From NCBI GenBank assembly GCA_965116885.1, contig OZ220741.1, forward strand, positions 3,648,001 to 3,712,000: 64,000 bases of DNA, given 5' to 3'. The notes below the pieces were generated by a model. The model was not told where the DNA came from, did no database searches, and worked only from the letters and a program-made list of their open reading frames with translations. Positions 11,845 through 16,552 of the stretch are shown here, piece by piece. The DNA comes from Candidatus Latescibacterota bacterium. Its GTDB lineage: Bacteria; Latescibacterota; UBA2968. The position numbers and the translations under genes are program-made. Each line of letters begins with the position of its first letter. The first letter of the stretch is position 1.

Positions 11845-13083
11845 ATGGCGCGAAAATTTGAGATTCCAGAATTTTACAAAAGTCCGATTATTTCACTGGT
11901 TAAAAGAGCGCGACAACTATCGGATCCCAAAAAGCGCGATTTGCAGCCCTCGGTACTGGATTTTGGGCCTGTGCGATTTTTTTTAGCACGGCATTTTGGA
12001 TTTTGCTTTGGCGTGGAGAATGCCATTGAAGTTGCGTATAAGACCCTGGAAACACATTCGGACCGGCGTGTGTTTTTCCTGAGTGAGATGATCCACAACC
12101 CCAATGTGAACGCGGATTTGCAGGATCGCGGCGTGCAGTTTATGTTTACGCCGTCTGGGGAACAGCTCATTCCGTGGGACGCGCTCGTTCCCGAAGATAT
12201 CGTGGTGGTGCCAGCTTTTGGTACAACTGTGGGAACGCAAGAGGAATTGGCCCGGCGGGGAATTGATCCCTATCAGTACAATACCACATGTCCATTTGTC
12301 GAAAAGGTGTGGAAGCGCAGTGCCCAATTGGGCGATGGAGATTATACTGTCATTATTCACGGGAAGACCATACACGAAGAAACGCGGGCGACTTTTTCAC
12401 ACGCGGTTCAAAATGCAGAGGTCGTAGCTGTACTGAATTTGAAAGAGGCGCATATTCTATCAAATATTATTCGGGGCAAACGCGATCTCGGTGCTTTTGA
12501 GCGGTATTTTAGACACAAGTGCTCACAGGGATTTGACCCCAGCATCCATTTGTCGCGTATCGGTGTGGTGAATCAGACGACGATGCTGGCTACTGAAACG
12601 CATAAAATCGCCGGAATTATTCGGCAGGCACTCATAGACCGGTATGGCGCGGAGAATATCGAAGATCATTTTGCGGATACGTCAGATACGCTTTGTTATG
12701 CGACCAACGAAAATCAGAATGCGACATACACGCTTATCGAGCAAGGTGCAGACCTCGCTCTGGTTGTGGGGGGGTACAATTCTTCGAATACGTCGCATAT
12801 TGTGGAATTGTGCGAGGAAGCCATGCCGACGTTTTTTGTGAAGGATGCCGAGGAGTTGATTTCAGAACGCGAAATTCGGCACTATTGTCTCAAGACGCAC
12901 GGGGTGGAGATTGCCGAGAATTGGTTGCCCGATAAAAGCCCTGTGGATATCGCATTGACATGTGGTGCCTCGTGTCCCGACGCCGTGGTGGATGGTGTAC
13001 TGTTGCGCGTGTTGTCTTTTTTTCCCGAAGCACGGAATGTAAATGATGCGCTGGCGTCGTACAGGGCGATGGAGCCTGTGTAA
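11845..13083 (+). CDS. ispH: 4-hydroxy-3-methylbut-2-enyl diphosphate reductase
   Basis: GFCFGV, IHNP, TTCPFV, NQTT, TLCYAT, GGYNSSNT, GASCPD. Confidence 0.93.
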   Translation: MARKFEIPEFYKSPIISLVKRARQLSDPKKRDLQPSVLDFGPVRFFLARHFGFCFGVENAIEVAYKTLETHSDRRVFFLSEMIHNPNVNADLQDRGVQFMFTPSGEQLIPWDALVPEDIVVVPAFGTTVGTQEELARRGIDPYQYNTTCPFVEKVWKRSAQLGDGDYTVIIHGKTIHEETRATFSHAVQNAEVVAVLNLKEAHILSNIIRGKRDLGAFERYFRHKCSQGFDPSIHLSRIGVVNQTTMLATETHKIAGIIRQALIDRYGAENIEDHFADTSDTLCYATNENQNATYTLIEQGADLALVVGGYNSSNTSHIVELCEEAMPTFFVKDAEELISEREIRHYCLKTHGVEIAENWLPDKSPVDIALTCGASCPDAVVDGVLLRVLSFFPEARNVNDALASYRAMEPV

Positions 13084-13090
13084 TACGGAG

Positions 13091-13507
13091 TTACTCTCCT
13101 CCTAATACTTCGAGTAGCCTGCGAACTTTTTCCAGTGACTCCTTTGTTCGCAAGCGCAGTAGTGCAAAAAGCGCGGCTTTTCCGTCTTCAGAAGACAGTA
13201 AAATATTCAGTTCTCTGAGTTGTTCTGTTGTGAGTGTGTTAATCCGGTCGCTTACAATACTGCTCAACTCGAGATCGCGCTCTTGCGGATAAACGATCGT
13301 TGTTTTGGGATTTGCACCCAAAAGGACATCCGGCGAGACGCCCAAAGCAGTAGCAATAGCGACCAGGGTATCGGTTCGAGGCACTTTTGTCTCTGCTTCA
13401 ATGCGAGATACTGTCGCCTGGTCAATATTGGCCGCATTGGCGAGGTCGAGTTGGGACCAGTTTTTTGCGTGCCGTAATTCCCTTATTTTTCGCCCAGTTA
13501 CAATCAT
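13091..13507 (-). CDS. XRE/Cro-family helix-turn-helix regulator
   Basis: IRELRHAKNWSQLDLANAANIDQATVSRIE...IATALGVS. Start uncertain (could extend to 13555). Confidence 0.85.
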   Translation of the reverse strand: MIVTGRKIRELRHAKNWSQLDLANAANIDQATVSRIEAETKVPRTDTLVAIATALGVSPDVLLGANPKTTIVYPQERDLELSSIVSDRINTLTTEQLRELNILLSSEDGKAALFALLRLRTKESLEKVRRLLEVLGGE

Positions 13508-13569
13508 AAATGAAAAATAAGGTAATTTTATGGGTTTATTTATGTTCATGGGCATATATTGCGATTAAA

Positions 13570-13589
13570 AATATGTATTTATACATATT
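13570..13589. promoter_or_regulatory. palindrome, candidate operator
   Basis: AATATGTAT-TT-ATACATATT between the divergent XRE and YWTD genes. Confidence 0.45.
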
Positions 13590-13619
13590 ACACGTTTGTA
13601 TTTTTGGATTGGATTCGCT

Positions 13620-14420
13620 ATGAGAAAAATGTATTGGACAGACCTGGGAACTTCTAAGATTCAGTGTGCAAATACAGACGGTTCAGATGTCAAAGATCTC
13701 GTTGCTACTGGATTGCGTATTCCAAATAGCATCGCCGTGGATGAGGACGAGGGGAAGATGTACTGGACGGACGCTGGAACTTCTAAAATTCAGCGTGCAA
13801 ATCTGGATGGTTCAGATGTCGAGGACCTGATTACTACCGATGTGTATCTTCCAGGTGGAATGACGGTGCATGAAAAGAAAAGAAAAATATATTGGACAGA
13901 GGCGGCCTGGGGAGAGACCGTGGAGTGCAAAGTGCACAGAGCGAACCTGAATGGCTCTCATATCGAAACCCTCGTTTTCACCAAATTGAGTATTCCCAAC
14001 GGTATCGTCCTGGATCTGGACATGGGTAAGATATACTGGACAGACTTAACTAAAATCCAGCGTGCGAACCTGGATGGTTCTCATGTTGAAACTCTCCTTT
14101 TTCCCGAATTATTGCCATTGGGGATTGCCTTAGACGTGGGTGAAGGGAAGATGTACTGGACGAACTATAAGGGTGCTGGCGTGTCTAAAATTCAACGAGC
14201 GAACCTGGATGGCTCCGATGTTGAAGATCTCGTTACCACGGGATTAGACCGCCCATCGGGGATTGCTCTGGATGTGGTGGAAGGGAAGATGTACTGGGGA
14301 GACTATGACAACTATCGCAGGGCTAAAATTCAATGTGCGAATTTAGATGGTTCAGATGTTGAAGATCTCGTTACTATGGGATTGGAGCGCCCATCGGGGA
14401 TTACTTTGTGTTGCTTCTAA
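13620..14420 (+). CDS. LDL-receptor class B (YWTD) repeat beta-propeller protein
   Basis: Six YWTD-type repeats (MYWTD, MYWTD, IYWTE, IYWTD, MYWTN, MYWGD), each followed by KIQRANLDGS-like sequence. Confidence 0.9.
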   Translation: MRKMYWTDLGTSKIQCANTDGSDVKDLVATGLRIPNSIAVDEDEGKMYWTDAGTSKIQRANLDGSDVEDLITTDVYLPGGMTVHEKKRKIYWTEAAWGETVECKVHRANLNGSHIETLVFTKLSIPNGIVLDLDMGKIYWTDLTKIQRANLDGSHVETLLFPELLPLGIALDVGEGKMYWTNYKGAGVSKIQRANLDGSDVEDLVTTGLDRPSGIALDVVEGKMYWGDYDNYRRAKIQCANLDGSDVEDLVTMGLERPSGITLCCF

Positions 14421-14440
14421 TATCTCTACTTTTTCATGGG

Positions 14441-14469
14441 TTGACTTTCACCTTTGCATGGGCTATATT
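14441..14469 (+). promoter_or_regulatory. sigma70-type promoter
   Basis: TTGACT-17 bp-TATATT. Confidence 0.6.
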
Positions 14470-14474
14470 GGAAC

Positions 14475-14724
14475 CACACAAGAAAGGAGGTGGTCGAATG
14501 AGTGAAATGACCAGTGGAGGTGGCTGTCGTTAGGTGCGCCTCTGCCAGGAGCGGGTGTAGCATCTCGAATGGTAGCGCACCTGGCAATCCAAGACAGCCA
14601 TCGAACGGCTTGTTATCTGCCACATTGGCGATTTTTTAACAGTCGCGAGGCAGAAACTTCCGTCAGACGATGCGCCGCACGGAGATGGGTCGGTTTTCCG
14701 ACACCCGACGTGCGGTGCTTTTTT
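14475..14724 (+). ncRNA. candidate structured RNA / sORF transcript (11-aa ORF MSEMTSGGGCR at 14498-14533)
   Basis: Bounded by a promoter and a terminator; AGAAAGGAGGTGGTC extended SD; several strong stems. Confidence 0.5.
14672..14724 (+). terminator. intrinsic terminator
   Basis: GCGCCGCACG...CGTGCGGTGC stem followed by T6. Confidence 0.65.
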
Positions 14725-14840
14725 GTGGGTTTCTAACTTGACAAAATTGGATTATACTGTACCTTCAAAGGCTCAAAGATTCCAAAATTAGGAGAGGAGG
14801 TGAGCGAGTTGCGCCGTAACCATGCGGCGCGATTGAGACG

Positions 14841-15272
14841 ATGATGACACCGAGTGCCAAAAAAGGTGATGTTGAACACACCTGGTATGTCGCCGATGCA
14901 GAAGGCAAGATACTGGGGCGATTTGCCAGTGGCGTTGCCCGAATTTTGCGCGGCAAACACAAGCCTTTTTATACCCCCCATGTTGATACGGGGGATCATG
15001 TGGTTATTGTAAATGCCGAAAAAATTCAGGTGAAGGGCAATAACAAAGCCCAACAGAAGGTTTATACGAGCTATAGTGGGTATCCCAGCGGGCTTAAGAA
15101 GCAAACGCTGGAAGACGCGCTGGAAAAGCGCCCCGCATTTGTACTCGAGCACGCGATTCGGGGCATGTTGCCCCACAACAAGTTGGGGCGGCAGATGATC
15201 AAAAAGGTCCGTATTTACGCCGGACCAGAGCACCCACACCAGGCTCAGTCTCCTGAGCCTATTGATTTATAG
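14841..15272 (+). CDS. rplM: 50S ribosomal protein L13
   Basis: WYVADAEGKILGR...GKHKPFYTPHVDTGDHVVIVNAEK...HPHQAQ. Confidence 0.97.
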   Translation: MMTPSAKKGDVEHTWYVADAEGKILGRFASGVARILRGKHKPFYTPHVDTGDHVVIVNAEKIQVKGNNKAQQKVYTSYSGYPSGLKKQTLEDALEKRPAFVLEHAIRGMLPHNKLGRQMIKKVRIYAGPEHPHQAQSPEPIDL

Positions 15273-15285
15273 AGGAGGTGATTAT

Positions 15286-15681
15286 TTGGCAGTTGAACCA
15301 CTGAGTTCTGCTACGGGGCGTCGTAAAACATCAACGGCGCATGTGAAACTTTTCCCCGGGACGGGATCGATTACTATCAATGGGCTTTCCGCGCTTGATT
15401 ATCTCAAACGGGAGACATTGGTGATGATTATCGAACAGCCCTTAGATATGACCGAGACCCGGGGGACTTATGATATTGTTGCCAAAGCAAAGGGGGGCGG
15501 TTTGACCGGCCAGGCCGGCGCCGTGCGATTGGGTATTGCGCGCAGTTTGCAAAGCGTGAATACGAGCAATCACAAACCCCTGCGTCAGGCGGGCTTGCTC
15601 ACGCGCGATCCGCGCAAAGTGGAACGAAAAAAACCCGGGCAACCCGGCGCGCGCAAAAAATTCCAGTTTTCCAAGCGTTAG
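15286..15681 (+). CDS. rpsI: 30S ribosomal protein S9
   Basis: TGRRKTS...GGGLTGQAGA...FQFSKR; TTG start after GGAGGTG. Confidence 0.97.
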   Translation: MAVEPLSSATGRRKTSTAHVKLFPGTGSITINGLSALDYLKRETLVMIIEQPLDMTETRGTYDIVAKAKGGGLTGQAGAVRLGIARSLQSVNTSNHKPLRQAGLLTRDPRKVERKKPGQPGARKKFQFSKR

Positions 15682-15793
15682 ACCAGAGTATTTTCTCTGG
15701 ATATCACATGTATCCTGATTGCTTCACGGGTGCCAGATGGCAATGCGGCAATATGAGGGATGCAGAGGACAAACCCAAAGTGCAGGAGGTGAC
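15682..15793 (+). promoter_or_regulatory. rpsB 5' leader (putative S2 autoregulatory RNA)
   Basis: Position upstream of rpsB; GGGT loop element with downstream AAACCC, as in described rpsB leaders. Confidence 0.45.
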
Positions 15794-16552
15794 ATGGCTG
15801 TTGTTTCAATGAGGCAACTGCTCGAATCTGGGGTTCACTTCGGGCATCAAACCCGGCGGTGGAATCCAAAGATGCAGAAGTACATTTTTACAGAACGCAA
15901 TGGTATTTATATTGTCGATTTGCAAAAGACGCAGGCGCAAATCGAAGCGGCATATCAAGCTGTGCGCAAGGCTGCTGAAACGGGCCAGCCGATTCTTTTT
16001 GTCGGCACCAAAAAACAGGCCAAAGACATCATTGTAAATGCTGCGGAACGCTGCGATATGTTTTATGTCAACAACCGCTGGTTGGGGGGCATGCTGACGA
16101 ATTTTCAAACGATTCGGCAGAGCATTCGCCGCCTGGACACGTTGGATAAAATGGCTGGCGATGGCACATATGAGCAGTTGACCAAAAAGGAAGTATTGCG
16201 CTTGGAACGCGAGCGCGATAAGTTGCAAAAATCCCTGGGTGGGATCCGCAGTATGGGACGTTTGCCAGCACTCGTATTTGTCGTGGATACTAAAAAGGAA
16301 AAAATCGCAGTTGCCGAGGCGCGTCGCCTGGAAATACCTCTTGTGGCAATTGTCGATACCAACTGCGATCCGGATGAAGTTGACCATCCAATTCCCGGCA
16401 ACGATGATGCGATGCGGTCAATTGCACTGATTACAGATTTGATGGCCGAGGCAGTGGTCGAAGGTACAACGGTTCGACAGGATGACGAAGAAGATGGCCC
16501 TGCCCCAGATGCGGGCCCTGAGATTACAGAAATCGATCCCAGCAATAATTGA
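15794..16552 (+). CDS. rpsB: 30S ribosomal protein S2
   Basis: [35 protein letters not shown]. Confidence 0.97.

Follow-up and report, generated by a model that had tools for sequence, protein, structure and literature searches.

The stretch analysed here, hereafter the window, comprises 64,000 nucleotides (nt) of contig OZ220741.1 (assembly GCA_965116885.1) from a Candidatus Latescibacterota bacterium, and its plus strand carries, between 14441 and 14726, a small structured RNA gene which is very probably an independent gene and a homologue of the Ms_IGR-5 family (Rfam RF02471). The promoter consists of a -35 hexamer TTGACT (14441-14446), a 17-nt spacer and a -10 hexamer TATATT (14464-14469), with a T-rich tract upstream; it matches 10 of 12 positions, is the top promoter-like site within 13000-16000, and is fully kept across five Latescibacterota copies of the locus. 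The sequence ACACA (14476-14480), 6 nt 3' of the -10 hexamer and the likely 5' end of the transcript, corresponds to positions 1-5 of the RF02471 consensus, where it is written in upper case (highly conserved). It is followed by an extended Shine-Dalgarno sequence, AGAAAGGAGGUGGUC (14481-14495), complementary over 15 nt, with one G-U pair, to the common 3' tail of 16S ribosomal RNA (rRNA), and then by an open reading frame (ORF) of 11 codons, MSEMTSGGGCR*, read from the sequence from ATG at 14498 to TAG at 14531-14533. A second Shine-Dalgarno-like motif, GAGGUG (14517-14522), lies inside this ORF, within a second GGAGGTGG (14516-14523).

The predicted minimum-energy fold places the start codon in the loop of a helix, P0, formed by UGGUC (14491-14495) and GACCA (14509-14513). 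Helix P1, of 10 bp with one G-U pair, joins the strands GGUGGCUGUC (14519-14528) and GACAGCCAUC (14593-14602), and inside it helix P2 (14529-14539/14575-14585) contains the stop codon and an inner hairpin, leaving the 3' internal loop AAUCCAA (14586-14592; family consensus AAUYCC) unpaired. Beyond P1, folding and comparison of the five copies define a Latescibacterota-specific 3' extension of about 120 nt of hairpins (14603-14726), including a CTGCC (14617-14621)/GGCAG (14649-14653) hairpin, of which a weak terminator-like site at 14618-14630 is a part, and ending in a terminator made of a long GC-rich hairpin (14672-14719) and TTTTTT. The extension is conserved across these copies, with one-sided G-U to G-C changes in the terminator stem. 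In other phyla the terminator stands immediately 3' of P1 and the conserved core, whereas in the window, where no terminator directly follows the core, ~70 nt of additional hairpins lie between P1 and the terminator (14672-14725). The region 14472-14726 folds with a z-score of -6.07, and none of 200 shuffles folded as well. An earlier note, made from the sequence alone, had described a stand-alone transcript here with a promoter, a 15-nt 16S match, an 11-codon ORF, a 10-bp stem, the CTGCC/GGCAG hairpin and a terminator; all of these were re-read in the sequence, the transcript's own promoter and terminator among them.

The complement to the 16S tail is exceptional within the window. AGAAAGGAGGTGGTC at 14481-14495 is the sole exact copy, and one other match with at most three mismatches was found, with three. 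Pairing with a generic 16S 3' tail (GAUCACCUCCUUUCU) ran without interruption for at most 4-12 nt (median 5-6) in front of 65 long ORFs of the window, compared to 15 nt in the RNA, and the predicted duplex energy of the latter is -26.5 kcal/mol as against -12.2 kcal/mol for a plain AGGAGG site; an Rfam scan found no rRNA in the 64-kb window. When the core RNA (14476-14605) was folded, positions 1-15 were predicted to be unpaired with a probability of 0.89-0.92 (0.89-0.99 when the start codon is counted too), and the last five codons and the stop codon were predicted to be locked in helices.

Scanning of the whole window at gathering thresholds resulted in no Rfam family reaching its score, and this includes the models for tmRNA, signal recognition particle RNA, RNase P RNA, 6S RNA and riboswitches. 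RF02471 (Ms_IGR-5, "Actinobacteria sRNA", where sRNA stands for small RNA) aligns with 14476-14625 over model positions 1-184 of 184 at 39.1 bits (E = 2.1e-7), below its gathering score of 45 bits, and L006, the one Latescibacterota relative scanned with this model, likewise scored 39.1 bits. At E values up to 10, the region 14300-14900 gave RF02471 and three chance-level Rfam matches only. The earlier note could not match the RNA to any class; with the Rfam check run, it is a sub-threshold relative of a known family, and the statement in that note that a hit to a known Rfam family would make the RNA not novel applies by half, as a family of this kind is already in Rfam. A covariance model, R1, was built from 62 representatives with Latescibacterota excluded and gave a single match in the 64-kb window, at 14476-14605 (58.8 bits, E ~1e-15); because this independent model finds the same RNA, we regard homology as secure despite the missed Rfam cut-off. 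The window also holds the motifs of the family, namely the 5' ACACA-GRAAGGAGGUGRUC, the second motif (GUGGAGGUG, with one extra G relative to the family's GUGAGGUG), and AAUYCC before the 3' strand of P1, which reads GACAGCCAUC where the family has CAGYCACC.

Relatives were collected by one scan of species-representative genomes with the exact 5' pattern ACACANGRAAGGAGGTGRTC, which returned at least 120 loci. Six were left out (L055 and L115, without the second motif or P1 and with R1 scores of 27 and 22 bits; L057 and L085, cut off by the end of a contig; L099, which breaks off at ~45 nt; and L036, disrupted past its stop codon), so that 114 listed loci and the window make up the 115 members considered here. 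At least 98 of these belong to Actinomycetota, at least nine to a Zixibacteria/Ignavibacteriales type, at least five, including the window, to Latescibacterota, at least two to a Methylomirabilis type and at least one to Terriglobia. The four other 'Candidatus Latescibacterota' loci are near-identical to the window across the RNA and its flanks, a resemblance that puts the window itself in this phylum. RF02471 scored 172 bits in Mycobacterium (L003) and 89 bits in Streptomyces (L001), and it also exceeded its cut-off outside Actinobacteria, in Methylomirabilis (67.7 bits), Zixibacteria (55.9), Ignavibacteriales (48.6 and 47.5) and at one further non-actinobacterial locus (57.8). The name of the family is therefore too narrow, and the host of the window, a member of Latescibacterota, is itself outside the phylum which that name specifies. 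RNA position 6, the only position left fully free in the search pattern, is a purine in 108 of the 115 listed members.

Examination of the flanking ORFs of 36 loci, with Pfam annotation, showed that the neighbours differ by lineage and that none is common. In Latescibacterota, rplM-rpsI lies downstream of the RNA in all five copies; mycobacteria have a class-IV aminotransferase upstream, with GCV_T-like and THAP4-like genes nearby; Streptomyces has pdxH and citrate synthase; and the Zixibacteria/Ignavibacteriales type has a nitroreductase, queA or ispDF, often on the opposite strand. Because these contexts are unrelated across phyla, the RNA is best understood as an independent gene rather than as the leader of rplM, and the location upstream of a ribosomal protein operon, stressed in the earlier note, is particular to Latescibacterota and not a trait of the family. 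A TANNNT hexamer ends 5-9 nt 5' of ACACA in 109 of the 114 listed members with 50 nt of upstream sequence, usually preceded by TTG at a distance of 17-18 nt and, beyond it, by a T-rich tract. Since this -10-like hexamer keeps a fixed distance, transcription would start at or next to ACACA in all lineages.

An origin in mobile elements was considered and set aside. The window RNA has no match among plasmids, and for a mycobacterial member the matches were limited to a 2.66-Mb record of Nocardia filed as a 'plasmid' and a single unverified contig labelled 'Bacteriophage sp.'. In the former (NZ_LN868939.1, Nocardia farcinica), a family member lies at 133497-133654 with no annotated feature beneath it; the size of this record is far above that of a plasmid, and it probably represents chromosomal DNA. 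The latter (MT835602.1, 'UNVERIFIED: Bacteriophage sp.'; L121 1501-1612) holds a full member with an R1 score of 83.9 bits which resembles that of Brachybacterium (L016), and this contig probably derives from an actinobacterium and not from a phage. Additionally, the RNA gene of Saccharopolyspora rosea (L036 2501-2906) is intact up to the stop codon and is followed by unrelated DNA encoding a transposase-like protein with HTH_29/HTH_32; this looks like the insertion of an insertion sequence into the RNA gene, and suggests that the RNA is dispensable in that organism or that a second copy is present. A metagenome-derived Mycobacterium member (L082 301-505) has a ~34-nt tandem duplication in the P2 loop, which shows that this loop tolerates large inserts. 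The excluded locus of the alphaproteobacterium Phaeovulum veldkampii (L055 2501-2700) shares the 20-nt 5' end and also carries a GTG start codon 7 nt past GGAGG, an 18-codon ORF, a AGAGGTGTC motif, a 10-bp stem and a terminator, at an R1 score of only 27 bits, and is either a chance resemblance or a very distant analogue.

Covariation was evaluated in a 63-sequence alignment (A1) for the three helices of the core. P0 had 82.7% of its cells paired with both-side changes in two of five pairs, P1 had 91.4% paired with both-side changes in six of ten pairs, and the base of P2 (five pairs) had 83.8% paired with both-side changes in four of five. Taken together, the three helices were paired in 87.4% of cells and contained 87 cells changed on both sides, compared to 25.8 +/- 4.2 in shuffles, none of 500 of which reached the observed value; slid controls peaked at 26 such cells and 47.5% pairing. 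The clear covariation in P1 is illustrated by the combinations CUG/CAG, CCA/UGG, CUA/UAG, CUC/GAG and UUG/CAA. This helix is absent from the Rfam consensus structure of RF02471, where its 3' strand is unpaired and GGUGGU is instead paired with GCUGCC. The latter helix, H1, was 87.6% paired in our alignment, and a slide of -3 was still 83.3% paired; its covariation was not beyond that of shuffles (37 of 500 reached the observed value), in a test that is itself weak because the search pattern fixed the 5' side. The AA..C columns of the AAUYCC loop are nearly invariant, and the predicted probability that the loop is unpaired is 0.88 in the window and 0.74 as the family mean.

Other arrangements of the inner region were weighed in the same manner. 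A pseudoknot between the P2 loop and AAUYCC beat 95% of shuffles in 10 of the 63 sequences overall; it is weak in Actinobacteria and is supported only in the Zixibacteria/Ignavibacteriales type, where UCCCAAC can pair with GUUGGG and seven of eight sequences beat 95% of shuffles; the window has no partner for it, its best pairing of 4 being matched by 76% of shuffles. Two inner helices had been described in the earlier note as mutually exclusive. These pairings, 14531-14539/14575-14583 and 14543-14549/14580-14586, share only 4 nt, and the minimum-energy fold picks the first; the five Latescibacterota copies are invariant across both. An antiterminator was rejected as a general feature, as pairing of GCUCGG in the P2 loop with the terminator is possible, judged by eye, in a few mycobacteria only.

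A canonical start codon and an ORF running to the same aligned stop were found in 113 of the 115 listed members, the remaining two having ATT at the start. Start codons were TTG (82), ATG (19) and GTG (12), and lengths were 12 codons in 98 members, 11 in 11, 13 in three and 15 in one. The stop keeps its position inside P2 while its identity varies (TAG in 97, TGA in 10 and TAA in six), and on these counts a role for a constant UAG in the sensing of release factor RF1 was rejected; a +1 frameshift continuation past the stop codon was likewise dismissed, as inspection by eye found nothing conserved there. Across four lineages the distance from the start codon to GAGGUG is 18, 21, 24 or 30 nt, all multiples of three, and the untranslated spacer between GGAGG and the start codon takes every value from 7 to 12 nt. 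The window is the one exception, with 19 nt from start to motif, offset by 14 rather than 15 nt from motif to stop, such that the frame stays open and the motif is read as GGA GGU GGC, in another frame than in the relatives.

GTGAGGTG is invariant in all 62 of the non-Latescibacterota representatives and was not forced by the search pattern, GAG GUG shows no synonymous change, and the preceding codon, of the form NGU, encodes Cys, Arg, Ser or Gly. The family peptide follows the consensus M-x3-[W/R]-T-[C/R/S]-E-V-[A/T]-x-x, with 11-15 residues, and the peptide of the window differs from it completely, which is the pattern of a translated regulatory mini-ORF in which the frame is kept and the peptide is not. 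Because the motif is invariant, the frame is kept and the window peptide differs, selection appears to act on the nucleotides and on the existence and length of the ORF rather than on the peptide in all lineages. That the ORF of the window stays open even though its motif is read in another frame points to ribosome transit, and not the peptide, as the feature under selection. These results also indicate that the extended Shine-Dalgarno sequence, the mini-ORF and the 10-bp stem picked out in the earlier note are real and conserved features rather than products of chance, and on this evidence the mini-ORF is likely to be translated.

We propose that the RNA is a translated, ribosome-engaging switch which acts in trans and is coupled to ribosome availability, a model to which we assign a probability of roughly one half. 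According to this model, the strong promoter would set the transcript start at ACACA, and nucleotides 6-20 would present an exposed Shine-Dalgarno sequence able to pair with the entire single-stranded 16S 3' tail. A ribosome would initiate at the accessible start codon, translate 11 codons (12 in most relatives), presumably melting P1 and P2, which contain GAGGUG, on its way, and stop at the codon buried in P2. With the stop codon in the A site, GAGGUG would end 5-6 nt upstream of the last sense codon, then in the P site; this distance matches that of an initiation complex, so that the ribosome could be held there through renewed pairing of its anti-Shine-Dalgarno sequence with the motif. The selected feature would be the passage and arrest of the ribosome rather than the peptide, and the RNA would toggle between a folded state, with P1, P2 and an exposed AAUYCC loop, and a state opened by the ribosome. 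A role in trans is proposed because no cis target exists. Of the three options offered in the earlier note, a translation-coupled switch and a ribosome-binding RNA together fit the comparative data best, and a micropeptide gene fits worst.

Several points weigh against this model. The generic tail used in the 16S comparison may not be the 3' end of the host's own rRNA. The search pattern fixed the first 20 nt of the fetched loci, with positions 8 and 18 restricted to A or G, so that invariance there is forced, and evidence for the conservation of this segment comes from the Rfam consensus and from position 6. The aligned sequences are related by descent, and shuffle controls consequently overstate the support for the helices, and the five Latescibacterota copies are so nearly identical that the ORF and helices of the window rest on homology with the wider family. 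A conserved peptide tail, x-E-V-A/T-x-x, is found in most lineages; no conserved target, partner or downstream gene was found among the loci examined; and pausing of ribosomes by internal Shine-Dalgarno-like motifs is disputed.

One alternative is that the locus is a micropeptide gene, in which the peptide of 11-15 residues is the product and RNA structure serves only stability and expression. The ORF retained in nearly all members with frame-preserving changes of length, the constancy of E-V-[A/T] outside Latescibacterota, and a very strong Shine-Dalgarno sequence and promoter, as would suit a highly expressed small gene, all agree with this explanation. We nevertheless consider it unlikely, as Latescibacterota keep the nucleotides and read them in the other frame, as ...TSGGGCR; GAG GUG lacks synonymous changes and the residue before it varies while the last two bases of its codon, GU, stay; and the codons that are conserved are exactly those occupied by P1 and the Shine-Dalgarno-like motif. 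Furthermore, genes for modification or export were not found nearby in the Pfam-annotated flanks.

A second alternative dispenses with translation, with the 5' end acting as a decoy that holds or marks the 16S tail or the 30S subunit (as a sponge, in hibernation or in quality control) and the ORF being secondary. The 15-nt complement, predicted to be unpaired and to form a duplex with twice the energy of a normal site, is what such a decoy would need, and the purine at position 6 would fit pairing with the terminal U of the tail. Frame-preserving insertions and deletions and a fixed stop argue that elongation and termination matter, and titration of ribosomes would presumably need a very abundant sRNA, all of which makes this reading improbable. 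Still less probable is that the RNA is an ordinary base-pairing sRNA, with the AAUYCC loop or the 3' strand of P1 as the seed for messenger RNAs and the ribosome-binding features incidental. Studies of actinobacteria do count it among the sRNAs or sRNA transcription units (PMC8079986; PMC8780764), and the loop is conserved and predicted to be unpaired, but in the Zixibacteria/Ignavibacteriales type the loop can pair within the RNA itself through UCCCAAC and GUUGGG, and the kept reading frame would be left unexplained. Finally, a cis-acting leader or attenuator of rplM-rpsI, for example for autoregulation by L13 or S9, accords with the position directly upstream of rplM in all five Latescibacterota copies and with the odd spacing of the rplM promoter elements, but is very unlikely given that rplM does not lie close to the RNA in any other phylum sampled, that a strong terminator ends it with a conserved TATACT beyond, and that the Rfam families of ribosomal-protein leaders have no match.

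The translated switch that we favor shares elements with several known systems. Leader peptides and translated attenuators, such as trpL/rnTrpL and erm, have in common with it a very short ORF whose translation remodels downstream helices and whose peptide is mostly irrelevant; unlike them, the window RNA, to which they are not homologous, is a free-standing gene closed by a terminator, lacks both a conserved gene downstream and an antiterminator, and belongs to a family that extends across phyla. The prfB +1 frameshift site likewise has a Shine-Dalgarno-like sequence within an ORF a few nt before a stop codon, but the spacer is 5-6 nt here rather than 3, and neither a slippery codon nor, by eye, a conserved continuation in the other frame is present. 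Dual-function sRNAs, including SgrS/SgrT, RNAIII/hld and SR1/SR1P, are also small transcripts that are both structured and translated. Their peptides are longer and functional in themselves, and these sRNAs are not known to have an extended anti-Shine-Dalgarno complement or homology to the RNA described here.

The closest comparison is with RF02471 itself. The window RNA and the Rfam family share the 5' end, the second motif, the stop-codon hairpin, AAUYCC, an own promoter and a terminator, and the window RNA differs in its sub-cut-off score, the inserted base in the motif, the other frame of the ORF and the ~120 nt of additional 3' hairpins. Ms_IGR-5 was reportedly first described by Li et al. 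in 2013, from a pull-down with a heterologous Hfq in M. smegmatis. It is described as validated by RNA-seq in S. lividans (PMC8079986), as mapped as an sRNA transcription unit in S. avermitilis (PMC8780764), and, as MS_IGR-5, as one of the sRNAs on which ribosome footprints were significant in M. abscessus and M. smegmatis (PMC4974804). The relevant passages of these three papers assign no function to it, nor does Rfam, and nothing on the locus was found in the literature searched on Rv0812/Rv0813c or in passages of PMC11133741, PMC9094748, PMC4109619, PMC4046766 and bioRxiv 10.1101/2022.06.22.497203.

Our results suggest that the Rfam entry, in place since the 2013 report, is too narrow in its name, as regards phylum, and incomplete in its structure, where P1 is missing. 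According to the literature searched (for Ms_IGR-5/RF02471, its motifs and the topic), the spread across phyla, helix P1 and an ORF maintained in frame with a dispensable peptide are new, as is the Latescibacterota variant, which combines a frame-shifted motif, a 3' extension and a location in front of rplM. Conservation past the family or order is rare among bacterial sRNAs. Here the promoter position, 5' end, mini-ORF, stop position and helices are kept from Actinomycetota to Latescibacterota, Zixibacteria, Ignavibacteriales, Methylomirabilis and Terriglobia, and conservation this broad argues for a basic role, probably in translation. M. smegmatis and Streptomyces are tractable hosts in which the family is found, and its key features are the complement to the 16S tail, the ORF kept in frame, and the second motif before a fixed stop.

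A more far-reaching and rather doubtful version of the switch model is that the RNA is a housekeeping 'ribosome-sensing' RNA, present in at least five phyla, which may report or buffer the pool of free mature 30S subunits through pairing with the 16S tail and a short, fixed round of translation. If so, it would be for the ribosome the counterpart of what 6S RNA is for RNA polymerase, and the copy beside rplM-rpsI-rpsB-tsf-frr would be a hint of co-regulation with the translation apparatus.

The neighboring regions of the window gave results of their own. Downstream of the terminator, TTGACA (14738-14743) and TATACT (14753-14758) are both conserved in the five Latescibacterota copies; the earlier note had assigned rplM its own TTGACA promoter, but at a spacing of 9 nt these two hexamers cannot form one promoter, and TTTCTA (14730-14735) with TATACT, 17 nt apart, is a better-spaced candidate. 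No ribosomal-protein leader, such as the Rfam L13 leader, was matched even at E values up to 10. Just 5' of rplM, at 14790-14840, a second strong run resembling a Shine-Dalgarno sequence, AGGAGAGGAGGTGAG, precedes a mini-ORF with a TTG start (MRRNHAARLRR*) and a hairpin formed by GCGCCG and CGGCGC. This layout, which may be a separate leader of rplM, is shared by L023 and L029 and gives way to other sequence in L006. Upstream of the RNA, the gene at 13596-14420 encodes a protein built from LDL-receptor class B (YWTD) repeats, a family that is unusual in bacteria, and the 3' end of this gene is also present in the related Latescibacterota loci.

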